Shown here: one piece after another, positions 9,393 to 26,252 of the stretch | Numbering within the stretch: the stretch's first letter is position 1 | Layout: every line of letters starts with the position of its first letter | Program-made: the position numbers and the translations under genes | Assembly (NCBI GenBank): GCA_036350795.1 | Contig: JAZBNV010000028.1 | Location: 5,235-69,234, forward strand | Source: Marinilabiliaceae bacterium | GTDB lineage: Bacteria; Bacteroidota; Bacteroidia; Bacteroidales; VadinHA17 | Direction: 5' to 3' | Length of the DNA: 64,000 bases | The notes under the pieces: generated by a model | Told to the model about the DNA's origin: nothing | What the model saw: the letters and a program-made list of their open reading frames with translations, nothing else | Databases searched by the model: none

Positions 9393-9544
9393 AGCTGCAA
9401 TTACTTTAACTATAAACCAGGATATTAAGCATTATAAACAAATAATTCAATCTGTTGTTTTCTATATATAAATATAGAATTGAACTAAAAACCTGACAAA
9501 ATAGTGATAATAATATTTTAGAACTTATTTTTGTGAAATAATTA

Positions 9545-11275
9545 ATGCCAGGTATGATAAAGGTACTTAAGAATATATTTGTTGTTCTGCTTACTCTAAC
9601 TCTTTTTTCATGTTCAGGGAATGAACAAAGGCATAATATTACCATTGTCGCTACCACTGATGTACATGGTGTAATATTTGGGAAAGATCCTTCAAACGGA
9701 GAGCAGAGGGAATCCTCAATGTCAAAAATCTCTTCTTTCTTAAGCCGGCAGCAGGACAGGAATATTCTACTTCTTGATAATGGTGATAATATCCAGGGTA
9801 CACCTGAAGTGTATTATTATAATTTTGAGGATACGGAATCAAAACACCTCTGGCCAAGGGTTCTTAATTATATTGGCTATGATGCTGTTACCGCAGGCAA
9901 CCATGATATTGAAGCCGGCCACGAAGTATACGACAGGATCAGGGACGAATACAACTTTCCTATGCTTGCAGCCAATGCTATAAGTACTGAAACGGGCGAA
10001 CCATATTTTGAACCCTATACAATTATTAGAAAGGGAGGTTTAAAGATAGCAGTTCTGGGTCTGATAACACCGGGAGTACCCGGCTGGCTTCCCGAGGTGT
10101 TGTACGAGGGCATTGAATTCGGGGATATGACAGAAGCAGCTGCCAGGTGGATGCCGGAAATACTTGAGAATGAACCTGACCTGGTTGTAGGCCTGTTTCA
10201 TGCAGGATGGAACGAAAGTTATGGAGGAGGTGAACCAGGGTCATTCAAAAATGAAAATGCATCACTCTCAGTTGCCCGCAGGGTTGATGGTTTCGATATT
10301 ATATTTATCGGACACGATCATGATCTTATGGCCGACTATATCGAAACCGAAAGCGGAGACAGTGTTCTTATAGTAGACGGAGGTTCACACGCCAGGTTTT
10401 TGCCTCTTGTTGACATTGAACTAATTGATTCAGGACAGGGAAGAACTATCCTTCTAACCCGTCATCTTATTAAGACAGATACACTGGAAACTGACCAGGC
10501 TTTTGATAAAGAATTCAGTAAAGACTTTTCGCTGATTGAAAGATATATAAACAGGGAGATTGCTTACCTGAGAAATCCTATAAGCACAAGAGAGTCATTC
10601 TTCGGAGACTCTGATTTTATGGATCTGATTCACAGCGTGCAGCTTGAAACAACAGGAGCCGATTTGTCCTTCGCTGCTCCTCTCTCCTTTGATGTGAGTA
10701 TTGATTCGGGTCAGTTATATGTGGCAGATATGTTCGACCTTTATCGCTATGAGAATATGCTTTACACAATAAAGCTGAAAGGGAGTGAGATTGATGATTA
10801 TCTTGAATATTCGGCCGCATTGTGGTTTAATACTATTGATGGAAAGGATAGCAGGATTTTGAAGTACAGGGACGATTCAACTAACTTCCTGCTTAACCGG
10901 TCGTATAATTTTGATTCTGCTGAAGGAATCAATTATACGGTTGATTTAAGTAAGACTGAGGGAAACAGGGTTGAGATATCGGCTTTTACCAATGGTATGA
11001 CTTTCTGTAATGATTCGGTTTATACTGTTGCTGTAAATTCATACCGCGGATCCGGAGGTGGAGGTCATCTGACAAGGGGTTGCAGTATAAGTGAGAAAGA
11101 TCTCTCCGGCAGGTTGCTTGAATCAACCAGTAAGGACCTGAGATACTATATGATGAAGTGGATTGAGAGTAATGATACAATTGAAATCAGGAATAACAAC
11201 AACTGGAGACTTGAACCTAAAAAGCTGTTGGGTGAAAGAATGCAGAAAGAGTACAGTTATTTGTTTAATAAATAG
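9545..11275 (+). CDS. Lipoprotein 5'-nucleotidase / 2',3'-cyclic-nucleotide phosphodiesterase
   Basis: Lipobox LFSC; metallophosphoesterase motifs TTDVHG, DNGDNIQG, GNHD and GHDH. Confidence 0.9.
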   Translation: MPGMIKVLKNIFVVLLTLTLFSCSGNEQRHNITIVATTDVHGVIFGKDPSNGEQRESSMSKISSFLSRQQDRNILLLDNGDNIQGTPEVYYYNFEDTESKHLWPRVLNYIGYDAVTAGNHDIEAGHEVYDRIRDEYNFPMLAANAISTETGEPYFEPYTIIRKGGLKIAVLGLITPGVPGWLPEVLYEGIEFGDMTEAAARWMPEILENEPDLVVGLFHAGWNESYGGGEPGSFKNENASLSVARRVDGFDIIFIGHDHDLMADYIETESGDSVLIVDGGSHARFLPLVDIELIDSGQGRTILLTRHLIKTDTLETDQAFDKEFSKDFSLIERYINREIAYLRNPISTRESFFGDSDFMDLIHSVQLETTGADLSFAAPLSFDVSIDSGQLYVADMFDLYRYENMLYTIKLKGSEIDDYLEYSAALWFNTIDGKDSRILKYRDDSTNFLLNRSYNFDSAEGINYTVDLSKTEGNRVEISAFTNGMTFCNDSVYTVAVNSYRGSGGGGHLTRGCSISEKDLSGRLLESTSKDLRYYMMKWIESNDTIEIRNNNNWRLEPKKLLGERMQKEYSYLFNK

Positions 11276-12469: not shown

Positions 12470-13081
12470 ATGGTTAAGAATGGCGACAAACTTCCTCTTG
12501 TTGAGCATTTTTATACTCTCCAGGGAGAAGGGCATAATACAGGTAAAGCAGCATATTTCCTGAGGATTGGAGGATGTGACGTTGGATGTAGCTGGTGCGA
12601 TTCGAGATATTCGTGGAATCCTGATATTCATCCACTTGTTCCTATAGAAGAGATTATTGCAATAATCGCCGGGTCGGGAGCCGATTCAGTGGTTGTAACA
12701 GGCGGAGAACCACTGATGTGGAACCTGGATTTGCTTTGTGACAGCTTAAAAAAGATTGGAGTAAAAACCTTTCTCGAAACATCAGGAGCATACCCTTTAA
12801 GCGGTACATGGGACTGGCTCTGCCTCTCTCCAAAAATAAATGCTCCCCCAAAGGAGGAAGTGCTAAAGCAGGCACATGAACTAAAGGTTATTATTCAAAA
12901 GGAGGAAGATTTCTCGTGGGCTGAAAAGATGAGCAAACTCGTAAGTAAAGATTGCTATTTGTACCTTCAACCGGAATGGAGTAAATCGAGCGAAATAACA
13001 GGCACGATTGTTGAATATATTTTACGAAATACAAGGTGGATGATTTCCTTGCAGAGTCATAAATATATGAAAATACCCTAG
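12470..13081 (+). CDS. queE: 7-carboxy-7-deazaguanine synthase (radical SAM)
   Basis: FYTLQGEG, CDVGCSWCD, VTGGEP and LQSHKY motifs. Confidence 0.92.
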   Translation: MVKNGDKLPLVEHFYTLQGEGHNTGKAAYFLRIGGCDVGCSWCDSRYSWNPDIHPLVPIEEIIAIIAGSGADSVVVTGGEPLMWNLDLLCDSLKKIGVKTFLETSGAYPLSGTWDWLCLSPKINAPPKEEVLKQAHELKVIIQKEEDFSWAEKMSKLVSKDCYLYLQPEWSKSSEITGTIVEYILRNTRWMISLQSHKYMKIP

Positions 13082-13085
13082 GCTT

Positions 13086-15017
13086 ATGTTGAGGTGGTTT
13101 ATTATAGTAATTTTTTACCTGGCCAGCCTGCTGACTGTTAACGCACAGGATTTTCATACCTCTTCAAACAGGGCTCTGAAATCTTACACTGAAGGTAAAA
13201 GGGCCTATGATTTTGTGCAGTATGAACTCGCCGAACAGAAGCTCAGGGATGCGATTAAGATTGACCCTGAATTTCTTGAAGCTCATCTTATTCTTGCTGA
13301 ACTTTATAAGGACAAAAAGAAATACGACTCCTCAATCAAGTCCTACCTCAAGGTTTTTGAAATAGATTCATTGTTTTTTAAGCCTGCCATCTTCAGCCTG
13401 GCCGAAGTATATTTTTTGAATGGTGAATATGGCGAGGCACTAAAATACTTTAATTCCTTTCTTAATAAATCACCTGTTTCTGATAAGCTTATCCAAAGAG
13501 CAGGTAAATATCTGGATGACTGCAATTTTGCACTGGAAGCAGTAAAAAATCCAGTTCCCTTCCATCCCCGGTCACTGGGCGATTCCATTAACACAGATTA
13601 CGATGAATACTGGCCATCAATAAGTGTTGATGATAAACTGCTGATATTTACCCGACAAACCTCCCAGAGTGCAAAAAGCCTCAGTGGTATCAGGTACCAG
13701 GAGGATTTCTATTATAGTTCGAGGCCCGATTCTGTGTGGTTAAAGGCAAGGAATATCGGGACACCACTAAATACGGCAGATAATGAAGGTGCCCTGTCCT
13801 TATCAGCCGGCGGGCAATCAATGTATTTTACTGCATGTAACCGGCCTGATGGATTAGGTGGATGTGATATATATTATTCTTCAAGAACCGATAAGGGCTG
13901 GTTGCAGGGTTCCAATATTGGTGCCCCTCTTAATTCTGCCAGCTGGGAATCACAACCATCCCTTTCGTCGGATGGCAGGAGTCTTTATTTTGTGAGTAAC
14001 AGGAAAGGCGGTTTTGGTGGAATGGATTTATGGGTGAGTTATTATACCGATTCAGGAAGCTGGTCAGAGCCTGTAAACCTGGGCAGGGATATTAATACTG
14101 CAGGCGATGAAATGTCGCCTTATATTCACTTTGATGGTAAAACTTTATATTTTTCGAGTAATGGTCGTCCCTCAATGGGAGGCTTCGATATTTTTATGGC
14201 AAGCAAAATATCTGATACCATCTGGACAGGGATAAGAAATCTGGGTTATCCGATTAATACTCAAACAGATGAAATAGGTCTTATTATTAACTCTTCAGGC
14301 AATAAAGCATATTTTTCTTCTGCAATAAAACCGGGTTCGGGCAGGGATCTTTATAGTTTTGATTTACCGGAAGAGCTAAGGCCAAACCCGGTATCGTATT
14401 TTAAGGGAACAGTGCTGGACGCAAAAACCAGGCGCAGGCTTCAGGCAACTTACGAGTTAGTTAACCTCAAAACCAATGAGGTGGTATTAAGCTCAAGTAC
14501 AAATGGGAAAGGTGAATTTCTGATCTGCCTCAGTGCCGGCGAAAATTATGGACTGAATGTAGATCTTGACGCTTACCTCTTCTATTCTGAGAACTTCTGG
14601 CTCGAAAGTAATCATTCAGCGGCAGAACCATTCTTAAAAACGATAGAGCTAAGCAGGGTAAAGGTGGGCGAGGCTATGAATCTTTACAATATTCTCTTTG
14701 AAACTGATTCGTGGGAGATTAAGGAGGCCTCACTGGCAGAACTGCATCGTCTGAAGAATAAATTATTGGCTAACCCGAAAGTAATAATAGAGATTGGTGG
14801 ACACACCGATGCTACGGGCTCTGTAGAGTATAATAACATTCTATCGAAGAAGAGGGCTGACGCCGTAGGTGCTTTTCTTATTTCTGAAGGTGTCTCTGAA
14901 TCCCGGATCCGGTCGAAAGGATTTGGCAAATCCCGTCCTGTTTCTGATAATAATACTGAAGAGGGAAGAAGAAAAAATCGCCGGACAGAGATATTGATAG
15001 TAGATATTGTGGAATAA
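13086..15017 (+). CDS. PorE-like TPR / PD40 beta-propeller / OmpA-C protein
   Basis: Signal peptide, N-terminal TPRs, PD40 repeats (QPSLSSDGRSLYFVSNR) and OmpA domain (GHTD..G..YN..LS..RA, NRRTE). Confidence 0.9.
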   Translation: MLRWFIIVIFYLASLLTVNAQDFHTSSNRALKSYTEGKRAYDFVQYELAEQKLRDAIKIDPEFLEAHLILAELYKDKKKYDSSIKSYLKVFEIDSLFFKPAIFSLAEVYFLNGEYGEALKYFNSFLNKSPVSDKLIQRAGKYLDDCNFALEAVKNPVPFHPRSLGDSINTDYDEYWPSISVDDKLLIFTRQTSQSAKSLSGIRYQEDFYYSSRPDSVWLKARNIGTPLNTADNEGALSLSAGGQSMYFTACNRPDGLGGCDIYYSSRTDKGWLQGSNIGAPLNSASWESQPSLSSDGRSLYFVSNRKGGFGGMDLWVSYYTDSGSWSEPVNLGRDINTAGDEMSPYIHFDGKTLYFSSNGRPSMGGFDIFMASKISDTIWTGIRNLGYPINTQTDEIGLIINSSGNKAYFSSAIKPGSGRDLYSFDLPEELRPNPVSYFKGTVLDAKTRRRLQATYELVNLKTNEVVLSSSTNGKGEFLICLSAGENYGLNVDLDAYLFYSENFWLESNHSAAEPFLKTIELSRVKVGEAMNLYNILFETDSWEIKEASLAELHRLKNKLLANPKVIIEIGGHTDATGSVEYNNILSKKRADAVGAFLISEGVSESRIRSKGFGKSRPVSDNNTEEGRRKNRRTEILIVDIVE

Positions 15018-15039
15018 TATATGCCTGCCTTTAAAAGGA

Positions 15040-15066
15040 AAGTCCCGCTCGTTATAAGCGGGACTT
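15040..15066. terminator. Intrinsic terminator between convergent genes
   Basis: Perfect 10-bp stem AAGTCCCGCT / AGCGGGACTT with a 7-nt loop; T-rich tail on the minus strand. Confidence 0.75.
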
Positions 15067-15119
15067 AAATGCCCATTTCAATAGCAGACTTGTATAATAG
15101 GCTTCGGTAGGAGTAATCA

Positions 15120-15956
15120 TCAAATAGCGATCCTGGATTTAATCGTAAATTCTTCTTTCCCTACATCCTCAAAAATTTTCCTTTCCTGCACAGAGAAATA
15201 TATAGCTGAACCATTAACCCCGTTTGGTTCAATCCAAAGATTTCCCCCCATACTGCTTATTAGCTTTTGAGCCAGTATTAATCCAATTGCAGCAAAGGTA
15301 TTGTTGTTTTTGCCAAGCAAATTCTGTAATTCCTCACCTGAGAGAAGCTGCTTGTTGAGATGATATCCGGAACCTGAATCTATAACGTAAAAAATAACCC
15401 GTTTATCATCCCGTTTGTAACCTAATTTAACGTAACCCGAAGATGTGTGTTCAATAGCATTCTGAAAGAGGTTTTTAAGTACCCGAATTACTTTTTCCTC
15501 TTCCAGATATACCTTATAATCTGATGGAATCTCTTCCAGAACCAGTGAAACCTGGTTCCGGTCAAGCTTTGATAAGGAATTATTCAGATCAATTGCAAGG
15601 TTCTGCATAAATATCCCCAGTTCGCTCTTTTTAAGATTTGTTTTTGGAGATTCAGAATCAAGCATTGCCGAATCAAGAAAATTGTCAAATAACGTAATAA
15701 GTTGCTCGCATGAATTTAAAATATGATCAGAATATTCTTTTCGCTCCATAAGATTGCAGTTCTCATTACTCTGCAGAAATGAGAATGCTACAATGGAGTT
15801 CATATATGTTCTGACTTCGTGTGAAAGACCTGTTAATATTTTGGGGCAACTGAGAATGTTTTTATCATCGCATGAAATACCTCCTTCTGCACGATTTCCA
15901 GACTGGCTGAACCTGTCTGCAAATTTCTTTATATGTCCCTGGTCGGTGTTAAACAT
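15120..15956 (-). CDS. Sensorless cytoplasmic histidine-kinase-like protein (HisKA + degenerate HATPase_c)
   Basis: H-box LSHEVRTYMN, N-box NLFQNAIEHT and G1 DSGSG are present. The F box is not recognisable and G2 is degenerate (AAIGL). Confidence 0.8.
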   Translation of the reverse strand: MFNTDQGHIKKFADRFSQSGNRAEGGISCDDKNILSCPKILTGLSHEVRTYMNSIVAFSFLQSNENCNLMERKEYSDHILNSCEQLITLFDNFLDSAMLDSESPKTNLKKSELGIFMQNLAIDLNNSLSKLDRNQVSLVLEEIPSDYKVYLEEEKVIRVLKNLFQNAIEHTSSGYVKLGYKRDDKRVIFYVIDSGSGYHLNKQLLSGEELQNLLGKNNNTFAAIGLILAQKLISSMGGNLWIEPNGVNGSAIYFSVQERKIFEDVGKEEFTIKSRIAI

Positions 15957-15983
15957 TTCCCGTTATATTGCCTGTGAATGCCT

Positions 15984-16730
15984 CTATTTTATTTTCCTTA
16001 ATAACTTCTTCGCATCTTTTCTGAAGCGACTTTCACTGTTTAGTATTCCCTTAAGCGCCAGCATTGCCTGGTCGTAGTCTTCCTCTTTGTAATAGCAAAG
16101 GGCCAGGTAGTAACTGGCTTCCTCCATAAACATATTGTCTTTATTGTCTATTACCTGTGCAAAAGAGCTGATTGCGCCTGAATAATCGTTAGTCTGCATT
16201 GCCGATAAGCCACTTAAAAACCTGGCCTGTACAGTACATGAAGACTGATCCGGAATTGCATTAAAGAGGGCGGAAGCTTCTTCATAATAACCCTTATTGT
16301 AGAGTTCCATGCCCGGTACAAGCTCAGCTGGTGTTATACCTGAAACTGCCCTGCTATTGCTTGTAACTTCATATGCAGTAAGAGCTTCAGATGTAAAATC
16401 ATCAATATTTATTGAGCCCCTGCTTAATAAAAACAAGGCACTGATAAGTATTAAGCCAAGAAAGACAGCTGCGTAGTTTGAAGGTACTTTCCTTACAGCG
16501 CGTTCTATATTGGTTTCCTTACGGTACCTGGCTTCAGCATTCATAAGTTTTTTACGAAGCTGTATTGCATCAAAGTTGGATGCAATCATCTCTGCTTTTC
16601 TTCGTAATTCAAGTTCATTACGCAGCCAGAGATTGCCTTCAAGCTCTTTCTCAAACCATCTTTTTTCTGATGGCTGCATTTTATCTTCCAGGTATCTCTC
16701 AATAAACCTGGTAAATTCAATCTTTTCCAT
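15984..16730 (-). CDS. Putative anti-sigma factor: N-terminal cytoplasmic helical domain, one TM helix, C-terminal TPR domain
   Basis: N-terminal 'IERYLEDKM..SEKRWFEKEL' anti-sigma-like pattern; TM 'YAAVFLGLILISALFLL'; TPR helices (GMELYNKGYYEEA, ASYYLALCYYK); ECF sigma in the same locus. Confidence 0.7.
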   Translation of the reverse strand: MEKIEFTRFIERYLEDKMQPSEKRWFEKELEGNLWLRNELELRRKAEMIASNFDAIQLRKKLMNAEARYRKETNIERAVRKVPSNYAAVFLGLILISALFLLSRGSINIDDFTSEALTAYEVTSNSRAVSGITPAELVPGMELYNKGYYEEASALFNAIPDQSSCTVQARFLSGLSAMQTNDYSGAISSFAQVIDNKDNMFMEEASYYLALCYYKEEDYDQAMLALKGILNSESRFRKDAKKLLRKIK

Positions 16731-16953
16731 TTTTATATAGGTATTTCATGCATATCTGGTAGTTGTAATATCTTAATTAAGACACAGGGCCTTAAGTAAT
16801 TACCTATTTATCTATGCCAACTGGCGCATAATTTCTTATATGCACAAGAGCATTTTTGTTCGTTCTTATCTGCACCTGCCTTGCAAAAGCGGCAAACAGC
16901 AGAATAAGTTCAATATGTCAAAGAGACCAGCTCTCCGTATTCAAAGAGCTTTC

Positions 16954-17097
16954 CTAAATCTCAGGATCTACTGTTACCGGAGGTGTAACCGTTCCTTTAT
17001 TGTCGCCATCACCACCTCTTACATTAATCATTTCTTCGTCAGAAAGTAAAAAATTGTTGAAAGTCTCGAAATTGGTTTCTTGATTCAGGTTTTTCAT
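16954..17097 (-). CDS. Double-glycine leader peptide precursor, 47 aa (below the ORF-track cutoff)
   Basis: Manual translation: MKNLNQETNFETFNNFLLSDEEMINVRGG|DGDNKGTVTPPVTVDPEI*. LSDEEMINVRGG matches the LSxxE(L/M)xx(I/V)xGG leader consensus. A C39 ABC exporter lies 4 kb away. Confidence 0.82.
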   Translation of the reverse strand: MKNLNQETNFETFNNFLLSDEEMINVRGGDGDNKGTVTPPVTVDPEI

Positions 17098-17137
17098 CAC
17101 TTTAAATTTTTTGTTATTGATTCGGGTTATTTATTAC

Positions 17138-17176
17138 GTTACATATATACATGTAACAAACCCCCTGTTTGTGACA
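17138..17176. promoter_or_regulatory. Overlapping inverted repeats upstream of the peptide gene (candidate ECF promoter or operator)
   Basis: GTTACAT-N6-ATGTAAC (17138-17157) and TGTAACAAAC-N5-GTTTGTGACA (17152-17176). Confidence 0.45.
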
Positions 17177-17335
17177 CGAAAAAATCAACTTTTTTTAAAA
17201 TATTTTTTCAGATAGCTGTATGTATCAGAATATCAGGCGAATAAAAAAGTGAATTTTTTTGTCTTTTTGGAGTACTTTTGAGAAAATATTTGCGTTGATA
17301 TTTTTTTTGCACATTTTCGCATAAATTCAAGACGG

Positions 17336-20300
17336 GTGAAAGAGATTATACCTAATATAAGAATTCTGGTCCTGACGGCAGTTTTGTCCTTGTCGGCGGC
17401 TGGCATTTCTTCTGCTGGCTCTTCTTCGGTTAATAACTATGTTCATGTAAGCAGCCAGTCCGACACTCTTATAAAGTACATCAACAGGTTCAGAACTCTT
17501 CTTGCCAATCCCCAATCGCCGGATTGTGCTCAGATGTATTCAACTTTGTCTGCCACTTATAGTAATATTAGCAGGGAGGGCAGCGACACTTTTACACTGG
17601 CCAAATTGTCGGATATTGCAAGGTACTGCGGTTATTATGATTTCGTAAGTGGCGAATACGAAGAATCCAGGAAGTTCTATATGGATGTGCTGGATATTGA
17701 ACGATTGAAGGGGGATACTATAAGTGATAATTTTCTCGTGGCTTTATCGCAGATAGGACTTTCATATTTTAATGAGAAAAGGTTTAGTGAGAGTATAGGA
17801 CCATTACATAATTCTATAATAATCCGTGAAAGACTAGAAGGTGAAAACTCCTCTGGATTGGTAAGGTCCCTAATTATACTTTCTTCTGCCTATGTCGAAT
17901 TTCCTGCACTTGACCAGGCAGAGTCAGCAGCACGAAGAGGCATTGATTTAATATTTGCAACAGGGAGCCAAAATAATCAATTATGCAAGCTCTACTATAC
18001 ACTGGGCAGAGTATATAAAGAGAAAGGAGATTACAATACGGCAAAATCGTATCTCATGGAAGCGAGGACCAGCTTTTTTAATTACCAGAGCGACCCTGAG
18101 GTTCTGCTTTTGATAAATAATTTTAATGCAGTTATAGCAAAATTACTCAATGATACTACAGCAGCCCTAGATTCCTACAGAGATGCAATAGAATTTATTG
18201 AAACATATAATTATGCCGGGTCAACAGTGCCTGCTGTTTATTCAAATTACGGCTTTTACCTGGCCGAACTCGGCAGACTGGATGAAGCAGAATCCATGTT
18301 CCTGGATGCAATCGCCTGTAGCGAAAACAATTTTGGAGCATACAGCAGTTCAAATTTGCGCGAACGGGAAAACTATGCTGATTTTCTCTTTGACAGCCGT
18401 AAGAATTACAGTAAGGCTGAAGCGATCTATTCAGATTTGTTTAGCCGGATAGAGTCTGTTAATGATATAGAATCACTTACATATGTTTGCCAGGGCTATG
18501 CGGAAGTAAAGTCATACGAAAAGGATTTTGAGGCAGCTCTGGATTTATATTACATGGTTGATAAGCGCCAGGATGAAATGTCTCCATTAGACAGGGCATA
18601 CTACCTGCAGGGGCGGGGTGAAGTATTTCTTGACTATTACCTTCACTCCGATTCACTGAGTCTTCTTTCAGATGCACTCAGGGACTTCGATCTTGCAATG
18701 AATATTATTGATTCCTCCAAACTTGACCTCAATGTTGAGGCAAGCAGGCTGAATTTAACCGGCAGGTTTGATTTCTTTTCTGACAAGGCAATCAGGTCTG
18801 CTATTCTTCTCTACAATAAAACCCTGGACAGGTCTTACCTGGATAAGGCTTTTTCCTATTCAGAGAAATCAAGGGCCTCAACCCTGCTGGCTGCAACCAG
18901 GGAATCAAGGGCTATGAAATTTAATATCCCTGACAGCCTCCTGTTCAATGAAAGAGTATTATCAAGCAAGATAAAGGAGCTTGATGCAAGGATATTCACA
19001 GAAAAAGGCAGGGAGAGAGTAAATACCGGGGTTCTCACAGAACTGGAAAGCAGCAGGCTGGATGTATTTACAGAAAGAGAAAGGCTGGTGGATCATTTTG
19101 AAAGAGAATATCCTGATTACTACAGGCTAAAGCACAATACCAGGGTTGCCCAACCACAGGAAATTGTGAAACATATTGGCCGAAAAATGAACTTTATTGA
19201 ATACTATACCACAGACTCGACCATTTATATATTTGTAATAAACAGGGATGGAAGTCATATAGAAAGTGTGGAGATAGACAGCTCTTATAATAATATTATC
19301 AGGCAATTCAGAAGCGACCTGGTAAACCCTGTTTTTGAAAACGGTGTAAGAGACCAGTTTTCAAGGATTGTAAGCTCTGCTTACTACCTCTACAGTAAAT
19401 TAATTAAACCTGTTGAAGCTTACCTTGTATCTGATAAATTGCTGATTGCAGGTGATGAGCTCCTGGCATATATACCCTTCGAAGCCCTTGTGACAGATAC
19501 TGCAGGTATTTCTGCCGTGAATTACAGGAATCTTGCATTTCTATTCAGGGACTACGATATAGAATATACTTATTCGGCTACCTTACTGCTCGAAAATCCC
19601 GGTAAGGGGAAAAGTATATACAATAATGCCCTGGTTTTTGCACCCGGCTACGGCGGCGGATTATCTTCTGATTCAATAATGATATCGCGTCAGACTGAGA
19701 GGGAAGAACTGAAGGACATCCAGGGGGCTAAAGAAGAAGCCATTTATATAAGTGAGCTGCTTGGAGGGGATCTTTATATTGACACGGATGCAACTGAGGC
19801 CAATTTCATAAGAAAATGCAGCAAGCCCGCTGTTATTCACCTTGCAATGCATACCCTGATGAACGATATGGAACCCATGTTTTCAAGGATGGTTTTTTCT
19901 CTTAATGATTCTGTGGAGGATGGCCTTTTAAATACTTACGAGGTATACGATCTTGAGCTTGATGCAAAGATGGTCGTGCTTTCATCCTGTAATACAGGGA
20001 CGGGTTACCTCAGCAAGGGAGAAGGAGTTATAAGTCTTGCAAGGAGTTTTATGTTTGCCGGAGCACCAACGGTTGTTATGTCGCTGTGGGAAGTTGATGA
20101 TCAATCCGGAACAGATATTATAAAAACATTCTATAAACATTTAAAACAGGGCAGAAGTAAAAGTGAGTCATTGAGGAAGGCGAGAAAGAAATACCTTGCA
20201 AATGCAGGGCAGATGCATTCACATCCCTACTTCTGGTGCTCGCTGGTAATCCTGGGAGAAGACGAAGCTATATTCTTTAAGCTGAACAGGGTTTTTATTA

Positions 20301-20362
20301 TATCGGGAATTATTCTCCTGGTAATTGGAGGCATTTTTTATCGTAAGCTGTATCCTTCATAA
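17336..20362 (+). CDS. Exported TPR-CHAT (caspase/separase-like) cysteine protease with C-terminal membrane anchor
   Basis: N-terminal signal peptide; many TPR helices; CHAT motifs LAYIPFEAL, IHLAMH, VVLSSCNTG, VMSLWEVDD and HPYFW; C-terminal TM 'VFIISGIILLVIGGIFY'. Confidence 0.92.
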   Translation: MKEIIPNIRILVLTAVLSLSAAGISSAGSSSVNNYVHVSSQSDTLIKYINRFRTLLANPQSPDCAQMYSTLSATYSNISREGSDTFTLAKLSDIARYCGYYDFVSGEYEESRKFYMDVLDIERLKGDTISDNFLVALSQIGLSYFNEKRFSESIGPLHNSIIIRERLEGENSSGLVRSLIILSSAYVEFPALDQAESAARRGIDLIFATGSQNNQLCKLYYTLGRVYKEKGDYNTAKSYLMEARTSFFNYQSDPEVLLLINNFNAVIAKLLNDTTAALDSYRDAIEFIETYNYAGSTVPAVYSNYGFYLAELGRLDEAESMFLDAIACSENNFGAYSSSNLRERENYADFLFDSRKNYSKAEAIYSDLFSRIESVNDIESLTYVCQGYAEVKSYEKDFEAALDLYYMVDKRQDEMSPLDRAYYLQGRGEVFLDYYLHSDSLSLLSDALRDFDLAMNIIDSSKLDLNVEASRLNLTGRFDFFSDKAIRSAILLYNKTLDRSYLDKAFSYSEKSRASTLLAATRESRAMKFNIPDSLLFNERVLSSKIKELDARIFTEKGRERVNTGVLTELESSRLDVFTERERLVDHFEREYPDYYRLKHNTRVAQPQEIVKHIGRKMNFIEYYTTDSTIYIFVINRDGSHIESVEIDSSYNNIIRQFRSDLVNPVFENGVRDQFSRIVSSAYYLYSKLIKPVEAYLVSDKLLIAGDELLAYIPFEALVTDTAGISAVNYRNLAFLFRDYDIEYTYSATLLLENPGKGKSIYNNALVFAPGYGGGLSSDSIMISRQTEREELKDIQGAKEEAIYISELLGGDLYIDTDATEANFIRKCSKPAVIHLAMHTLMNDMEPMFSRMVFSLNDSVEDGLLNTYEVYDLELDAKMVVLSSCNTGTGYLSKGEGVISLARSFMFAGAPTVVMSLWEVDDQSGTDIIKTFYKHLKQGRSKSESLRKARKKYLANAGQMHSHPYFWCSLVILGEDEAIFFKLNRVFIISGIILLVIGGIFYRKLYPS

Positions 20363-20907
20363 TCTTCAAAGTCAGGATCAGCTTTAATAAGTTTGATAAG
20401 CTCTTCTTTACAGAGATATTTCTTTCTCCTTGCATAGGCAACACTTTTATAGCCCATTTCCCTCGCAATCTCTTCGTAAGTTTTTCCCTCCAGGTGCATG
20501 GTAAGAACTTTCTGACTTTCTGCTGGCAGTATAAGGAAAGCCCTCTGGACTATCTGTTCAATGGGTGTATCAAGAAGTTTCTCAAGCTCAGATTCATCCA
20601 TTATATCCTGATCATAATCGCTTTGCTCTTTCTTAAGCCTTAACTGGTTTGACCACAGGTTGCGGGCAATACCAAATACATATCCCTTGAGATCACAGCT
20701 TAGTTCAACTCCGTTGTGCTGGAATTTCTTAAATACCACCATCAGCGCATCCTGGAATACATCAAAAGCATCCGCCTCAGTTCCACTATTCTTAGTAATA
20801 TAAGATTTAACGGTACTGAAATAATTCTGGTAGAGGTAATTAAGTGTTTTGTCATCCCCCTTTCTTAAACCCTCAACCAGCTGTTTATCTGAGTGCTTCC
20901 TGAACAC
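20338..20907 (-). CDS. ECF-type sigma-70 factor
   Basis: Region 2 'DAFDVFQDALM...YVFGIARNLW' and region 4 'KTYEEIAREMG'; TATATTTG box upstream (20928-20935, minus). Confidence 0.92.
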   Translation of the reverse strand: MFRKHSDKQLVEGLRKGDDKTLNYLYQNYFSTVKSYITKNSGTEADAFDVFQDALMVVFKKFQHNGVELSCDLKGYVFGIARNLWSNQLRLKKEQSDYDQDIMDESELEKLLDTPIEQIVQRAFLILPAESQKVLTMHLEGKTYEEIAREMGYKSVAYARRKKYLCKEELIKLIKADPDFEDYEGYSLR

Positions 20908-21047
20908 TTTTTCTGAAGATTATATGACAAATATAGTATTTCCAAATAATATTACTCATCCTCAGGGCCAATTGCTGGCTTGCATAAGCCAGGTTTGCTT
21001 ACATTTAAATAATAGATATCTTTACTTTTTAATTGAAAATAACAGGA

Positions 21048-23234
21048 ATGTCTTTCCCTTTTGTACAGCAACCTGATGCTATGGATTGCGGACCCAGCTG
21101 CCTTAAAATGATAGCAGCATATTATGGTCGCGACCTTTCCCTGGCTAATCTCAGGGATACTTCATTTATTACGAGGGAAGGTGTGTCATTTCTCGGGCTT
21201 TCTGAAGCTGCAGAATCAGCCGGATTCAGAACTATAGGGGTAAGGATAGACTTTGAGAAGTTAAGGAACGACACCCCCTTGCCATGCATAGTTCATTACA
21301 GGCAAAATCATTTTGTTGTGGTGTACAGGATCAGGGGAGAGAAGGTATATATTGCTGATCCTGCTACAGGGAAGTTGATAGTGTCTAAAAGTGAATTTGA
21401 GAAGCACTGGGGCACTACCACCGTTGATTCACAACGTCAGGGGCTCGTACTGATTCTTCAGCCTTCCCCCAAATTTTATGAAGCTGAAGATGTCAGAAGC
21501 CAGGAGAAGGGGTTCAGGTTCCTCCTGAAATATGTCAGGCTCTACAGGAAGTTCTTTATCCAGTTACTTATCGGGCTGATAATCGGGAGCTTTATACAGC
21601 TGCTTCTGCCTTTTCTTACACAATCTGTAATTGATATAGGTATAAACACAGGGGATATAAAATTTATCTACCTGATACTCTTTGCCCAGCTGGCTCTTGT
21701 GGTCGGAAGAATGTCTGTCGATTTTATCAGAAGCTGGTTGCTGCTTCATATTGCAACCAGGGTAAATGTCTCTGTTATCTCAGGTTTCCTGTACAAACTG
21801 ATGTCGCTTCCCATCTCTTTCTTCGATACCAGGCTAACCGGTGACCTTTTGCAGAGGATAGATGATAATAACAGGATTGAAACTTTTTTTACCACAACCA
21901 CCCTTAACGTATTGTTCTCCTTTATCAATATCTTAATATTTGGTATCGTTTTAGCTATCTATGATATAAGGATATTGTTGCTCTTCGTGGCCGGAACAGG
22001 GCTCTATATTGCCTGGGTCCTGTTATTTATGAAGGCCAGATCGCGCCTCGACCACATCAGGTTTGCCCAGATGTCAGAGAACAACAGTAAGCTTATCGAA
22101 ATAATAAACGGGATGCAGGAGGTTAAGCTTACCCAGAGCGAAAGGAGTAAAAGGTGGGACTGGGAGAATCTCCAGGCAAAGCTGTTTAAAACCAAAGTAA
22201 AGGCTTTGAGTTTGTTGCAGTACCAGCAGGCAGGAGGGAGGCTGATAAATGAGGTAAGTAATATTTTGATTACGATTTTATCGGCCACTGCTGTAATTTC
22301 GGGCGACATTACACTGGGTGCCATGCTTGCTATCCAGTTTATTATCGGCCAGCTGAATACCCCGGTAAGTCAGATAACAAACTTTATACGAACTGCACAG
22401 GATGCCAGGATAAGTCTCGACCGGCTTGCTGAAGTACATGCTAAAGAGGAGGAGGAGAGCGCATCCGATATGAAAGTGCAGAACCTGCCCGCGGCCAGGG
22501 ATATTTATATTAATAATCTTTCATTCCAGTACGAAGGACCAAGATCGCCCTTTGTACTTAAAAATATTGACCTTGTTATCCCTAATAATAAGGTCACTGC
22601 CATTGTTGGTCCAAGTGGTAGCGGAAAAACTACCCTGCTTAAACTGATAATGGGATTTTACAAGCCTGTAGAGGGTGAAATAGTGATCGGAGATACCCTG
22701 CTTCCAAACCTGAGCGTTAAACTATGGAGGAGTAAATGTGGTGTTGTAATGCAGGATGGCTTTATCTTTCCTGACACAATTGCTTATAATATAGCACCCG
22801 GAATTGATATTATCGACCAGGACCGTTTCCTGAGAGCGGTTGATATTGCAAATATCAGGGGATTTCTTGAATCCCTCCCGCTAAGCTACAATACAAGGAT
22901 AGGGAACGATGGCAAGGGACTCAGCCAGGGACAGAAGCAAAGAATACTGATTGCACGTGCTGTTTATAAGGATCCGGAATACCTGTTTTTCGATGAAGCA
23001 ACCAATTCACTCGACGCAAATAATGAAAAGGTTATTACCGGTAATCTGAATTCTTTCTACTCGGGAAAAACCGTTATTGTTGTTGCGCACAGGCTCAGTA
23101 CTGTCAGAGAAGCTGATAATATTGTAGTTCTCGATGGCGGACGGATAGTAGAACAGGGAAGTCACGAGGATCTTGTAAGGAGCAAAGGCTCATATTTTAA
23201 CCTGATAAAGAACCAGCTGGAGCTGGGTACATAA
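21048..23234 (+). CDS. Peptidase-containing ABC transporter (PCAT: C39 peptidase + TMD + NBD)
   Basis: QPDAMDCGPSCL (catalytic Cys), NHFVV (His), IADP (Asp); Walker A GPSGSGKT, LSQGQKQR, FFDEATN. ATG at 21048 is preferred over TTG at 21033. Confidence 0.96.
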   Translation: MSFPFVQQPDAMDCGPSCLKMIAAYYGRDLSLANLRDTSFITREGVSFLGLSEAAESAGFRTIGVRIDFEKLRNDTPLPCIVHYRQNHFVVVYRIRGEKVYIADPATGKLIVSKSEFEKHWGTTTVDSQRQGLVLILQPSPKFYEAEDVRSQEKGFRFLLKYVRLYRKFFIQLLIGLIIGSFIQLLLPFLTQSVIDIGINTGDIKFIYLILFAQLALVVGRMSVDFIRSWLLLHIATRVNVSVISGFLYKLMSLPISFFDTRLTGDLLQRIDDNNRIETFFTTTTLNVLFSFINILIFGIVLAIYDIRILLLFVAGTGLYIAWVLLFMKARSRLDHIRFAQMSENNSKLIEIINGMQEVKLTQSERSKRWDWENLQAKLFKTKVKALSLLQYQQAGGRLINEVSNILITILSATAVISGDITLGAMLAIQFIIGQLNTPVSQITNFIRTAQDARISLDRLAEVHAKEEEESASDMKVQNLPAARDIYINNLSFQYEGPRSPFVLKNIDLVIPNNKVTAIVGPSGSGKTTLLKLIMGFYKPVEGEIVIGDTLLPNLSVKLWRSKCGVVMQDGFIFPDTIAYNIAPGIDIIDQDRFLRAVDIANIRGFLESLPLSYNTRIGNDGKGLSQGQKQRILIARAVYKDPEYLFFDEATNSLDANNEKVITGNLNSFYSGKTVIVVAHRLSTVREADNIVVLDGGRIVEQGSHEDLVRSKGSYFNLIKNQLELGT

Positions 23235-24550
23235 TGAATTACAGGAAACACGAAATAAGGGACTCATCTCCGGTAGAGGCTATAATAGGTAAGCCCCCGG
23301 GGGCAATTGTAAGATGGGGAATAACAATTATTGCTCTTGTTATAGTATTCGCTTTAGCTGCATCCTGGTATATTGAGTATCCATATACTGTAAGCGGTAA
23401 GCTTACTATAAGCTCTTCAAACCCGCCTGCCACACTTATGGCCCAGACCTCGGGTCGTATTGAAGAATTCTTTGTAAGCGAAGGACAGAAGGTTCACGAA
23501 AATGATATTCTTGCATTGATTCAAAGCTCTGCAAGCCTCGAAGATGTTACCAGCCTGTATAATATTATTAAGCTTACCGGGATAAATGTATCGGGCGATA
23601 CAGGGGCAAGGAATCTTAGCCTTTTTCCTGATAATATGGAGCTGGGCGAACTGCAAATGGTCTATTCTGCTTTCAGGTCAGCCTATATGAGTTATATAAA
23701 CCATATTGAAGTAGATTATTATGGGAAGAAGATTTCTGCACTTAATACCGAGATCAGCAGCATTGATCAATATATAGCAAGTCTTAACAGGAAGAAACTA
23801 CTGTTTGAAAAGAGAGTTTCACTTGCGGAAACAGAACATAGCAGAATGCTTGTGTTTATAAATGATTCTTTGATCTCACCCCAGGAAATTGAAGACTCTG
23901 AAAAGAAATTACTGCAGGATAAAATTGACCTTGAACAGGTTCAACAGGAAATAAATGCAAAAATAATTGAAAAGCAAACCCGGCTGCGCGACCTTGAAGA
24001 TTTTAAAGCTGCCAGGGAAAATGAGGTAAGGGAAAAATGGACCAGGCTGGAAGAAGAAAGACTTAAACTGGAGGGAGAACTTAGTTCATGGTTTTTGGAG
24101 CACCTTATTGCATCACCGATAAATGGCAGGGTTACCTTCTCTGATTACTGGGGAGAAAACCAGTCTGTAAAAGAAGGTGATATCGTAATGACCGTTATAC
24201 CCGATGGAGAAAACCGGACAGTAGGTCGCATGCAACTGCCAATGAGAGGATCGGGCAGGGTTGAACCCGGTCAGAAAGTTATCGTTAAGCTCGAATCATA
24301 TCCGTATATACAATATGGTATTCTGGAGGGCAGGATTGAAACAATTTCACTTGTTGCAAATGAAGAAAGATATGTTGCAGATATAGAATTTCCCAGGGGA
24401 CTTGTTACAGGAACAGGCAAGGAGCTTATATTCTCGCAGAATATGTCAGGAAATGCAGAGGTGGTTACCGAGAAAATGAAACTGATTGAACGTATTATAT
24501 ATCCACTGCGCTACCTTATTGAGCGTAATCGTATGCTCTCGGGCAACTAG
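23234..24550 (+). CDS. HlyD-family membrane fusion protein
   Basis: N-terminal TM, lipoyl-like 'SGRIEEFFVSEGQKV', long coiled coil and 'YPYIQYGILEG'; translationally coupled to the PCAT. Confidence 0.93.
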   Translation: MNYRKHEIRDSSPVEAIIGKPPGAIVRWGITIIALVIVFALAASWYIEYPYTVSGKLTISSSNPPATLMAQTSGRIEEFFVSEGQKVHENDILALIQSSASLEDVTSLYNIIKLTGINVSGDTGARNLSLFPDNMELGELQMVYSAFRSAYMSYINHIEVDYYGKKISALNTEISSIDQYIASLNRKKLLFEKRVSLAETEHSRMLVFINDSLISPQEIEDSEKKLLQDKIDLEQVQQEINAKIIEKQTRLRDLEDFKAARENEVREKWTRLEEERLKLEGELSSWFLEHLIASPINGRVTFSDYWGENQSVKEGDIVMTVIPDGENRTVGRMQLPMRGSGRVEPGQKVIVKLESYPYIQYGILEGRIETISLVANEERYVADIEFPRGLVTGTGKELIFSQNMSGNAEVVTEKMKLIERIIYPLRYLIERNRMLSGN

Positions 24551-25524
24551 GGCCGCTGCTCAAAACAGTCGGTGCAAACAGCGGATGATTTATCTGAGAA
24601 CTTCTCCAGCTCCCTGTAGTATTTTTCTCTTGCTTCAGATGCCTCCTCTTTACCTGTAAGTTTAAGTTTAACTTCTGTACCTGCCCTGATCTGCCCCAGT
24701 TTATACATATCGGCATGGATAATATTTGCAAACTGGGGATATCCTCCAATGGTCTGGCAATCGCTGCCCATTATTATTGGCTTTCCATCAGGAGGGACCT
24801 GTATAGTGCCAGGATGAACTGCATAGCTGAGTATCTGCCTTCCCGGAATTGCGCCGGGGTCACTTCCTTCGAGCCGGATACCCATCCTGTTTGACTGCGG
24901 AGATACGCTAAACTCCCGGCCCAGCAAACTATTTCTTATTTTCTCCGGAAACATATCAAAATTAACTCCTTCTGTAACTCTTAATACCATTTTATCAGGG
25001 AAAGAGGGGATTGAACCTGCGGGTGCAGATCTCTTTTTCAGCACGTTTAAAACTGAAGGATAAAGTGGAATAATGTCGTTCTTTTCGAGCATCCTTCCCC
25101 TGTAGCCTCCAAGTCCGGCCGGAATATATGTTGACATGCTGCCAAGTACTGGATCGATCCTGAAACCACCGGAGATAGCAAGGTAATTTCGCATGCCGCT
25201 GGCCAGTTTATCAATCCTCAGCCGGTCACCCTTCGATGCTCTTACAGCTTTCCAGCATTCTATTTTTTTATTTCCCAGTATAACTTCTGCTTTACCCCCT
25301 GTTATTGAAAACACCGCCGTCGACAGGAATTCAATTTCAAGGCCATGGAATATCGATTCAATTACAGCTTCACCCGGGGTGTTCCTTACCAGCCAGTTAG
25401 CAACAATATACGAATATTCGTCCATGGCACCTGCTGAAGGTAAGCCATACTCCCTGTATCCAAACCTTCCTTTATCCTGGATTGAAGCACCAAAACCCTT
25501 ATCTGTAATTATTATTCCTTTCAT
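24547..25524 (-). CDS. pxpC: 5-oxoprolinase subunit C
   Basis: IQDKGRFGY, GAMD, SNRMGIRL, GTIQVPPDG and QTIGGYP motifs. Confidence 0.9.
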   Translation of the reverse strand: MKGIIITDKGFGASIQDKGRFGYREYGLPSAGAMDEYSYIVANWLVRNTPGEAVIESIFHGLEIEFLSTAVFSITGGKAEVILGNKKIECWKAVRASKGDRLRIDKLASGMRNYLAISGGFRIDPVLGSMSTYIPAGLGGYRGRMLEKNDIIPLYPSVLNVLKKRSAPAGSIPSFPDKMVLRVTEGVNFDMFPEKIRNSLLGREFSVSPQSNRMGIRLEGSDPGAIPGRQILSYAVHPGTIQVPPDGKPIIMGSDCQTIGGYPQFANIIHADMYKLGQIRAGTEVKLKLTGKEEASEAREKYYRELEKFSDKSSAVCTDCFEQRP

Positions 25525-26240: not shown

Positions 26241-26252
26241 ACAGGCACTAAT

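Follow-up and report, generated by a model that had tools for sequence, protein, structure and literature searches.

A 64,000-nucleotide stretch of a Marinilabiliaceae bacterium genome (assembly GCA_036350795.1, contig JAZBNV010000028.1, positions 5,235 to 69,234; hereafter the window, within which all positions are counted) carries a short minus-strand gene for a 47-residue double-glycine (GG) precursor peptide. The open reading frame (ORF) is a real gene, and it is highly probable that its product is a genuine exported GG peptide. It lies within a module of seven genes, which encode a histidine kinase, a tetratricopeptide repeat (TPR) protein that is a candidate anti-sigma factor, the peptide itself, a TPR-CHAT protease, a sigma factor, a peptidase-containing ABC transporter (PCAT) and an HlyD-family protein. 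We propose, tentatively, a layered model in which the exported peptide is part of a dedicated sigma/anti-sigma/TPR-CHAT signalling module. Because the peptide gene shares an operon with the genes for the anti-sigma-like TPR protein and the kinase, has a dedicated promoter and neighbours the genes for a TPR-CHAT protein and a sigma factor of the extracytoplasmic function (ECF) type, it is plausible that the peptide is a cell-to-cell signal. We infer peptide cleavage and export, the sigma dependence of the peptide promoter, the function of the anti-sigma candidate and the role of the CHAT protein from sequence, synteny, structural models and RNA-library contigs, on which all of our functional statements rest.

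Conservation of the peptide gene

The precursor consists of a leader, MKNLNQETNFETFNNFLLSDEEMINVRGG, followed by a core, DGDNKGTVTPPVTVDPEI, which together make up its 47 residues; an in-frame GTG at 17100 is an alternative start that would add one residue. GG leaders are about 15-30 residues long, end in GG, GA or GS and are hydrophobic at positions -4, -7 and -12 and acidic at -8. The leader of the window peptide conforms to this consensus, with Gly at -1 and -2, Val at -4, Met at -7, Glu at -8 and Leu at -12. A preliminary description of the locus, made from its letters alone, had reported a 47-residue ORF with a 29-residue GG leader and an 18-residue acidic, Cys-free core, as well as an A-rich tract before the start codon. 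We found the ORF as described, on the minus strand (which that description did not state), and the A-rich tract just 5' of the ATG. The reading of the ORF as a double-glycine precursor is also borne out, both by the spacing of the leader residues and by the invariance of L18, E22, G28 and G29 in 18 orthologues; M1 is invariant in the same 18-row alignment. We predict that the precursor is probably cleaved after Gly29 and exported by the neighbouring transporter.

The preliminary description had suggested a tblastn comparison with related genomes. In a search of this type across 61 genomes (the window's own and 60 relatives), orthologues of the peptide were matched at E ≤ 1 in 32, with 13 small-ORF matches below 1e-3. 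Many of these orthologues are open, full-length and of similar size, and they are found in many genera of the window's own family. A profile built from 18 orthologues retrieved 615 proteins at E ≤ 0.01 from a collection of 5.8 billion proteins. Named relatives are nearly all entered as 'hypothetical protein' from Bacteroidales or Bacteroidota metagenome bins, the exceptions being one 'rSAM-modified peptide' and one 'natural product precursor'. The ESM Atlas contains the exact peptide sequence; the best scores of the look-up there were 0.84-0.87, under the meaningful level of 0.9, and the ComC and lantibiotic leader clusters that it returned are leads only. Across the leader codons, the ratio of nonsynonymous to synonymous differences (pN/pS) ranged from 0.05 to 0.55 in all 15 pairs of six orthologues, at pS values of 0.41-0.85.

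RNA data, another check named in the preliminary description, gave supporting evidence. When the contigs of four sediment metatranscriptome runs were mapped onto positions 15000-24600, those of three runs covered the ORF at ≥99% identity (X1, 16960-17125; X2, 16956-17106; X3, 16884-17126), and parts of the downstream genes for the anti-sigma candidate and the kinase were covered in all four. The sole contig difference within the ORF, at 17020, is synonymous and falls on a third codon position. Two contigs end at 17125/17126, 3' of the promoter motif described below, which is at most a weak hint on the start of the transcript. No contig from the four runs covered 17247-21419, where the CHAT and sigma genes lie, which is not evidence that these genes are silent.

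The full-length orthologues, the 615 relatives, the invariant residues and pN/pS values well below 1 together establish the ORF as a real gene. Its short length, and the fact that there is no direct evidence at the protein level, might be taken to favour a chance ORF without a product, but the conservation data already contradict this: frame and length are conserved as well, RNA-library contigs cover the ORF and its place in a conserved module is constant. We regard the probability of a chance ORF as close to nil.

The predicted mature core and its family

The predicted 18-residue core has four acidic side chains and one basic one, contains no Cys and carries a net charge of -3. We surveyed the cores of 121 family members, i.e. 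the window peptide and its 120 best matches. The core begins with DG or NG in 90 of these and contains PP[VI] in 114, in 113 of which this element lies 5-10 residues from the C-terminus; 117 cores end in I, L, F or V. Two contain Cys, and the net charge of the side chains is zero or negative in 120. Lys is missing from 34 members, both Thr and Ser from five, and seven cores have no Lys or Arg. The family core pattern is D/N-G, an acidic/Gly spacer, PP[VI] and a short tail ending in I/L/F/V, in which conservation is concentrated in the Pro-containing tail, the N-terminal half being variable and acting as an acidic spacer; the cores are extended, rich in Pro and Asp and fast-evolving. There are three main subfamilies: that of the window peptide, ...[KR]G-x3-PP[VI]T(x)[DE]PE[IL], a second with ...PT[RK]PP[VI]IIE[IFL] and a third with ...PPI[RK][VI]. 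In more distant members, which were found by their position, the part behind the GG is likewise acidic and rich in Pro (e.g. DGDDQDILLPDPPPPPHGTE and DGGGSGDPGNSGEDIVPPPPDGLD). These peptides form a new member family among the GG-leader peptides.

An explanation that has to be weighed against these cores is that the ORF encodes a natural-product precursor, modified by an ATP-grasp or radical S-adenosylmethionine (SAM) enzyme encoded elsewhere, or an unmodified antimicrobial, the nearby regulators only controlling its production. The leader does bear a weak likeness to TIGR04149 (GG_sam_targ_CFB; 13.3 bits, E = 0.058) and to the leaders of a lantibiotic family (14.1 bits) and a bacteriocin-like family (12.6 bits) in NCBIfam, but all three matches are confined to the leader and lie far under their cut-offs (25 bits for TIGR04149); a Pfam scan of the ORF gave no match. 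The two relatives with exceptional names would fit such an explanation, as would a radical-SAM gene 4 kb from the peptide gene, but the product of that gene is QueE-like and it lies outside the rearranged modules L030 and L036 discussed below. With a score below the cut-off, and with the sole nearby radical-SAM gene not travelling with the module, we rejected an assignment to the radical-SAM-modified class of ribosomally synthesized and post-translationally modified peptides (RiPPs) represented by TIGR04149.

The preliminary description had offered cross-linking of Thr/Lys with Asp/Glu residues by an ATP-grasp ligase as an alternative. This does not agree with the family, given the members without Lys (34/121) or without Thr and Ser (5/121) and the differences between the cores of the subfamilies. 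No ATP-grasp enzyme was found among the conserved module neighbours scanned with Pfam and NCBIfam, a genome-wide ATP-grasp search not having been run. Membership among the graspetides was rejected on two counts, as no linked ATP-grasp ligase was found among the neighbours scanned and the positions of Thr, Ser and Lys are not conserved. The same description had judged the core to be unlike membrane-active bacteriocins, and this holds throughout the family, whose cores are acidic and Pro-rich, rarely contain Cys (2/121) and have a net charge of zero or below in 120/121. By definition, the mature peptide of a class II bacteriocin is cationic, amphipathic or both, and an immunity gene adjoins the gene that encodes it. 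We rejected an unmodified class II bacteriocin, since the core has a net charge of -3 and is not amphipathic and no small membrane immunity gene is present among the conserved neighbours. A modified natural product is unlikely, and the anionic, non-amphipathic, mostly Cys-free and often Lys-free cores, together with the lack of an immunity or modification gene among the conserved neighbours scanned, leave the natural-product explanation as a whole with very little probability.

The exporter

The PCAT matched PF03412 (E = 1.9e-36), ABC_membrane and ABC_tran in Pfam and resembles TIGR01193/TIGR03796 in NCBIfam, and the Cys of its C39 domain is present in a DCGPSC stretch. The ATG at 21048 from which the preliminary description had the C39 domain encoded is confirmed. 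The HlyD-family protein has one N-terminal transmembrane segment and matched TIGR01843 at E = 1e-29, which is under the cut-off of that family.

The window's own genome is a draft metagenome-type assembly of 188 contigs with a completeness of 95.75%. A hidden Markov model (HMM) of the leader, run against the 75,608 six-frame ORFs of at least 25 residues in this assembly, had one match below E = 1, the window peptide, and a single C39 domain is present at this completeness. The genome has a one-to-one pairing of one GG peptide with one C39 transporter, and the earlier claim that the peptide is the only plausible substrate near the PCAT is true genome-wide. Across related loci, peptide and PCAT are either found jointly or jointly not found. 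Both are present in family f1 and in G054, a genome of another family of the same order, and neither was found next to the sigma/anti-sigma/CHAT triads of the genomes G039 and G043.

The candidate anti-sigma factor and the histidine kinase

On the minus strand the peptide gene is followed by the gene for the 248-residue TPR protein and then by the histidine kinase gene. The TPR protein is predicted to consist of a helical cytoplasmic N-domain (residues ~1-80), a transmembrane helix (~87-105) and a periplasmic TPR region (~140-248). We modelled residues 1-85 with AlphaFold2 (AF2; predicted local distance difference test, pLDDT, 79) and compared the model with the PDB using Foldseek. Seven of the eight matches at E ≤ 10 were anti-sigma domains complexed with ECF sigma factors (RsiW, RslA, MucA), with a root-mean-square deviation (RMSD) of ~2 Å over ~50 residues and weak E-values of 0.55-9.9. 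The gene for the TPR protein comes directly after the sigma gene in five other genomes (L036, L047-L050): in G054 it overlaps the end of the sigma gene, and in G060, G039, G047 and G043, which belong to other families, it directly follows it. The two genes are 3.6 kb apart in the window. The single-pass topology, the fold matches and the adjacency to the sigma gene elsewhere make it likely that the 248-residue TPR protein is an anti-sigma factor. A complex prediction from alignments for residues 18-47 of the peptide and the TPR domain (residues 106-248) scored 0.00 against a mark of 0.32, which, without controls, speaks neither for nor against binding.

Two irregular loci were seen among the relatives. 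The orthologue of the anti-sigma candidate in L029 (G019:C1, ~9000-9742) is read in two overlapping frames (query residues 1-121 and 112-247), which may reflect a frameshift or an assembly error. In L046 (G033:C63), a run of N at 1162-1278 occupies the expected site of the peptide gene upstream of the orthologue, and G033 was left unscored for the peptide.

The kinase has neither a transmembrane segment nor a sensor domain, and its gene adjoins that of the anti-sigma candidate in most related loci. As candidates for a partner regulator we examined the genes downstream of the kinase in two rearranged loci, and these neighbours are unrelated (a leucine-rich repeat protein, FtsX/MacB, a TonB receptor and DUF4249).

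The 230-nucleotide spacer after the peptide gene has a fold z of -2.29. The hairpin directly after the peptide stop codon, found as a pattern match only, may be an attenuator that raises the peptide transcript relative to that of the downstream genes.

The TPR-CHAT protease and the sigma factor

The TPR-CHAT protein has a signal-like N-terminus, a long TPR array, the CHAT domain at residues 684-974 and a C-terminal hydrophobic membrane anchor. H839 and C885, which form the catalytic dyad, are invariant across 15 orthologues. In a Foldseek search with the AF2 model of this protein (pLDDT 83), DdvA (8rw5/8rot) took ranks 1-2 with E-values of 5e-15 to 7e-15, at TM-scores of only 0.23-0.32, and the next matches were human separase and the craspase Csx29 (ranks 6-34). 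Global TM-scores were low in general (0.23-0.44), as is expected of long flexible repeat proteins. A phmmer search of the PDB sequences returned weak TPR matches only, so that DdvA was found by its fold and not by its sequence. The TPR-CHAT protease is the sole CHAT protein of the genome, which also encodes one site-2-type protease of the M50 family.

The sigma factor scored 61.3 bits against TIGR02937 (cut-off 42.9) and has regions 2 and 4 only. Its gene and the convergent TPR-CHAT gene overlap by 25 bases at their 3' ends (20338-20362); the ORF coordinates in L021 are similar, with an overlap of 16 bases.

Predicted promoters of the peptide and sigma genes

The best-conserved non-coding block of the locus lies upstream of the peptide gene and consists of AAAAAGTTGATTTTTTCGTGTCACAAA, ~13 variable bases and ACATGTA. 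Such a combination of TGTCAC and ACATGT with a 16-nucleotide spacer resembles the -35/-10 pairs of ECF-type promoters. The exact bipartite motif occurs once in the window's own genome and once each in 10 of 41 genomes (own included), in every case some tens of bases before the peptide gene; the reversed control occurs in none. A different pair, GGTWACCTTTT ... GGAWTWAAGG, takes the same place in distant loci.

The evidence that connects this promoter with the sigma factor is from G054, in which the genes for the sigma factor and the anti-sigma candidate form one operon. The motif GGTTACCTTTTTA-N8-(A/G)GGAT(C/T)AA(C/T)AGATGG stands both before this operon and before the peptide gene of that genome, and a looser version of the pattern finds three sites only in its 5.1 Mb. 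ECF sigma factors commonly transcribe their own operon. Given this usual autoregulation, the shared motif suggests that the peptide gene is likely to belong to the very small regulon of the sigma factor. On this basis we consider it fairly probable that the peptide promoter is sigma-dependent.

The third motif copy in G054 lies in L053 (G054:C6:106000-113500) at ~6000-6190 on the minus strand and reads GGTTACCTTTT...GGATTAATAGAT. It is followed by a stretch of ~150 nucleotides without an ORF, with a hairpin inside it and a strong bidirectional terminator that a convergent peptidase gene also uses. This stretch is possibly a sigma-dependent small RNA, a candidate for the output of the circuit in G054.

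Upstream of the sigma gene, the block GGAAATAcTATATTTG is conserved in 13 orthologous regions of the window's clade. It contains, within the TATATTTG box, the element TAnnTTTG, which we take to be the -7 element of the Bacteroidetes primary sigma factor. With such a housekeeping-type box the sigma factor would be constitutive, whereas the peptide, the anti-sigma candidate and the kinase would be induced.

A 7-bp inverted repeat, GTTACAT-N6-ATGTAAC, spans the downstream promoter box of the peptide gene (17138-17157, minus strand), and only its ACATGTA arm is kept in distant orthologues.

Conservation and distribution of the module

We examined synteny by tblastn of the window proteins against 20 loci, each of up to 20 kb in length and surrounding a peptide match. 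All seven genes are present in 11 of the 20 loci, and six of them, without a match to the HlyD gene, in two more. The other seven loci are truncated at contig ends or rearranged, and each of these retains at least two partners. In the rearranged loci L030, L036 and L043 the parts are the same and the order has changed, which argues that their linkage is functional and not accidental. In most loci the peptide and CHAT genes are divergent neighbours over one shared intergenic region. The genes that flank the module seem to be unrelated to it and encode a TPR/PD40/OmpA protein, an NRAMP transporter, a nucleotidase and a phosphatase-like protein. The QueE-like radical-SAM gene (12470-13081, plus strand), which scores under every equivalog cut-off, is syntenic in close relatives and absent from the rearranged modules. 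A pxpABC 5-oxoprolinase cluster (24547-26993, minus strand) is likewise syntenic in close relatives and does not travel with the rearranged modules.

The peptide family is found mostly within the window's own family. Beyond it, at least one genome from a different family in this order, G054, has the peptide too. Four genomes of other families in this order (G060, G039, G047 and G043; loci L047-L050) carry the triad of sigma factor, TPR anti-sigma candidate and TPR-CHAT protein. The triad seems to be older and more widespread than the peptide, which would be an addition to it.

Table 1. Coordinates of the module genes and of associated sequence elements in the window
Feature	Position	Strand	Details and basis
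Peptide gene, 47 codons	ATG 17097-17095, stop 16956-16954	minus	Translation
Double-glycine leader, residues 1-29	17011..17097	minus	Ends in INVRGG; translation; invariant L18, E22, G28, G29
Predicted mature core, residues 30-47	16957..17010	minus	DGDNKGTVTPPVTVDPEI; translation and family pattern
Stop codon of the peptide gene	16954..16956	minus	Translation
Terminator-like hairpin	16929..16950	minus	9-bp stem, weak T tail; directly 3' of the peptide stop; pattern scan and fold
Candidate anti-sigma factor, 248 residues	15984..16730	minus	Hydropathy, TPR families, AF2/Foldseek
Soluble histidine kinase, 278 residues	15120..15956	minus	HisKA and HATPase_c; Pfam, NCBIfam, hydropathy
Intrinsic-terminator-like site at the operon end	15040..15066	minus	11-bp stem with 6 GC pairs, T-rich tail; stronger hairpin of the two
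Bipartite promoter-like motif	17148..17176	minus	TGTCACAAA-N13-ACATGTA; conserved in 13 orthologous loci
TPR-CHAT (caspase-like) protease, predicted periplasmic, 1008 residues	17336..20362	plus	Pfam CHAT E = 6.3e-55, hydropathy, AF2/Foldseek
ECF-type sigma factor, 189 residues	20338..20907	minus	Sigma70_r2, Sigma70_r4_2; TIGR02937
TATATTTG box upstream of the sigma gene	20928..20935	minus	Within a conserved block
PCAT	21033..23234	plus	C39 domain, six-helix membrane domain, ATPase; likely start ATG 21048
HlyD-family membrane-fusion/accessory protein of the exporter	23234..24550	plus	HlyD_3, Biotin_lipoyl_2

Proposed circuit and alternatives

The circuit that we propose would operate as follows. 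The module's own ECF sigma factor would recognise the promoter of the precursor gene and direct its transcription, after which the C39 domain of the PCAT would cut the precursor behind Gly29 and the PCAT and HlyD proteins would export the 18-residue peptide. Outside the cytoplasm, the peptide or a C-terminal fragment with the PP[VI] tail might be recognised by a TPR surface, for which the periplasmic TPR domain of the anti-sigma candidate and the array of the TPR-CHAT protein are the two candidates. Until proteolysis, the 248-residue anti-sigma candidate would keep the sigma factor bound; the CHAT protease would then clip the anti-sigma factor at site 1 and the single M50 protease would finish at site 2. 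Once freed, the sigma factor would again transcribe the operon of peptide, anti-sigma factor and kinase. In this arrangement the peptide would provide positive feedback, the anti-sigma factor negative feedback and the sensor-less kinase the output.

That the peptide itself is the cue of this circuit is a speculative part of the model, to which we give somewhat less than an even chance. It has in its favour that the operon layout, in which the peptide is encoded with its presumed receptor, matches that of autoinducing circuits, that an extended Pro-rich tail is conserved and the compartment offers two TPR surfaces, and that the circuit would otherwise be almost without output. TPR domains commonly bind extended or C-terminal peptides.

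Several of our results weigh against this circuit. At E ≤ 1e-4, the peptide profile had no match in 400 other genomes sampled evenly across the phylum, which marks the peptide as a trait of a narrow lineage. In the long loci around the triads of G039 and G043, a relaxed scan that recovered its positive controls found neither a peptide nor a PCAT within 8 kb, which indicates that a triad can sense another cue and that the peptide is perhaps an output only. A PCAT that has an HlyD partner normally sends its cargo out of the cell; the 18-mer would then have to re-enter the periplasm, and the module contains no importer. Besides the weakness of the anti-sigma fold matches, sequence searches of the 248-residue protein (Pfam, PDB sequences) returned TPR only and no anti-sigma family. 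At the loci inspected, neither the module nor the region downstream of it yielded a response regulator that could partner the kinase. The motif before the peptide gene might alternatively be the operator of a dimeric regulator, several orthologues showing a partial inverted repeat, TGTCA-N17-TGACA. Finally, the RNA-library contigs are supporting evidence and not proof of transcription, strand or transcript ends.

One alternative is that the peptide is an output only. The triad would then sense another periplasmic cue, such as envelope damage or phage attack (the kind of cue put forward for DdvA), and respond with peptide export and the kinase, while the peptide would act elsewhere, e.g. as an alarm signal to neighbours, as a ligand of another receptor or as a binder of metals or surfaces. 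The triads without peptide or PCAT in G039 and G043 agree with this, as do the outward direction of the exporter architecture and the apparent sigma dependence of the peptide promoter, which places the peptide downstream of the switch; DdvA has also been suggested to sense a phage-related protein signal (PMC11506125). However, the anti-sigma candidate is co-transcribed with the peptide in nearly all family f1 loci, a layout of the autoinducing type, and the sole promoter target that could be detected is this very operon, so that there would be very little output without feedback through the peptide. No other receptor is apparent either. We consider a peptide that serves as output only to be possible, if somewhat doubtful.

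The peptide might also be a regulator of the protease rather than a diffusible signal, i.e. a securin-like pseudosubstrate or inhibitor, or else a substrate, of the TPR-CHAT protein. The divergent arrangement of the peptide and CHAT genes over a shared intergenic region in most loci would suit such a role, and so would the extended, Pro- and Asp-rich and fast-evolving cores, given that separase, a structural relative of the protease, is held by the extended inhibitor peptide securin (PMC11506125). But the cores contain no conserved residue of a cleavage type, Lys or Arg being missing in seven of the 121, and export by the PCAT and HlyD proteins would take the peptide out of the periplasm. A protease regulator is accordingly an unlikely role, and the model of an exported peptide in a dedicated signalling module is the one that we retain, tentatively.

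Comparison with known systems

The closest system by fold is that of DdvA. In the model proposed by its authors, a periplasmic signal, still unknown, activates the CHAT domain to clip the linker to the membrane helix, and RseP then completes the liberation of DdvS, the sigma factor (PMC11506125). The target of regulation by DdvA is a CBASS/CRISPR defence island; a peptide or exporter is not part of the system as presented there, and DdvA-like proteins are reported only from Myxococcota and one Comamonas (PMC11506125). The window module is like this system in having a periplasmic TPR-CHAT protein with a His-Cys dyad that is tied to an ECF sigma factor and in the proposed logic of a site-1 CHAT cut followed by an M50 protease. 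In contrast, DdvA is one polypeptide with an anti-sigma domain, a transmembrane helix and a TPR-CHAT part, whereas the window encodes two proteins (15984-16730 and 17336-20362), and its TPR-CHAT protein has a signal-like N-terminus and a C-terminal anchor of its own. By analogy, the module looks like a DdvA system split in two, into a small TPR anti-sigma factor and a separately anchored TPR-CHAT protease.

In the GG-pheromone circuits of Gram-positive bacteria, such as ComC/ComAB/ComDE and BlpC/BlpAB/BlpRH, the peptide is sensed by a membrane histidine kinase with a response regulator. The window module shares with these circuits a short GG precursor, export by a PCAT and an accessory protein, co-transcription of the peptide with the presumed sensing parts and a dedicated, probably self-induced promoter. 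It differs from them in that its kinase has no membrane or sensor part and no linked regulator, in that the switch consists of an ECF sigma/anti-sigma pair and a caspase-like protease, and in that the host belongs to the Gram-negative Bacteroidales.

Other systems also share features with the module. Regulated intramembrane proteolysis of the sigma-E type (DegS/RseA; AlgW/MucA/MucE, PMC8545111) resembles the proposed circuit in that the C-terminal residues of a peptide or protein activate a periplasmic protease, upon which a single-pass anti-sigma factor is cut and passed to an M50 protease. Sensing there falls to a PDZ domain within a serine protease, with misfolded outer-membrane protein as the cue. 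In the window module the candidates for this role are TPR domains together with a cysteine protease, and an exported peptide with a gene of its own would be the cue. In craspase, the TPR-CHAT protein Csx29 cuts Csx30, which is associated with an ECF sigma factor, so that a TPR-CHAT protein of related fold stands upstream of an ECF sigma factor there too (PMC10028731, PMC11506125). Unlike the window module, craspase is cytoplasmic and RNA-guided and involves no secreted peptide. HetC of Nostoc is a PCAT of a didermic bacterium that has been proposed to export a regulatory, non-antimicrobial peptide; it differs in having a cyclic-nucleotide-binding domain and an unknown substrate, and the available text of PMC10986499 describes no link to a sigma/anti-sigma pair.

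In the literature that we searched, a GG peptide tied to an ECF/anti-sigma/CHAT module is nowhere described; DdvA, craspase and the Gram-positive pheromones turned up instead. The parts (GG peptide and PCAT, ECF/anti-sigma proteolysis, TPR-CHAT linked to ECF) are known, and their combination is undescribed in this literature. The module is like a hybrid of the DdvA type and the Gram-positive GG-pheromone circuits and is a member of neither class, since it consists of two polypeptides where DdvA is one and lacks the membrane kinase and regulator of the pheromone circuits.

Implications

Cell-to-cell signalling by peptides is textbook knowledge for Gram-positive bacteria and barely documented in Gram-negative ones, and we know of no documented case in the Bacteroidota. 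Three well-studied parts come together in the module: the pair of GG peptide and PCAT, a sigma/anti-sigma switch of the ECF type and a caspase-like TPR-CHAT protease of the periplasm. It might represent peptide quorum sensing of a new design in Gram-negative Bacteroidales, an interpretation that we regard as doubtful though possible, in which an unmodified, acidic peptide of a polyproline type, exported by the PCAT, would be read by TPR domains in the periplasm and would trigger the CHAT protease to cut a separate anti-sigma factor. As part of the same interpretation, the sigma factor would have essentially one target operon and the kinase would carry the output, which in G054 may be a small RNA.

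The candidate cue for a TPR-CHAT anti-sigma system is here genetically encoded, short and synthesisable, whereas that of DdvA is still unknown. What such systems sense can therefore be tested directly, the materials needed being a synthetic peptide, the two TPR domains and the protease. With a single promoter target and parts that are present in single copy, the module could also provide an orthogonal peptide-inducible switch.

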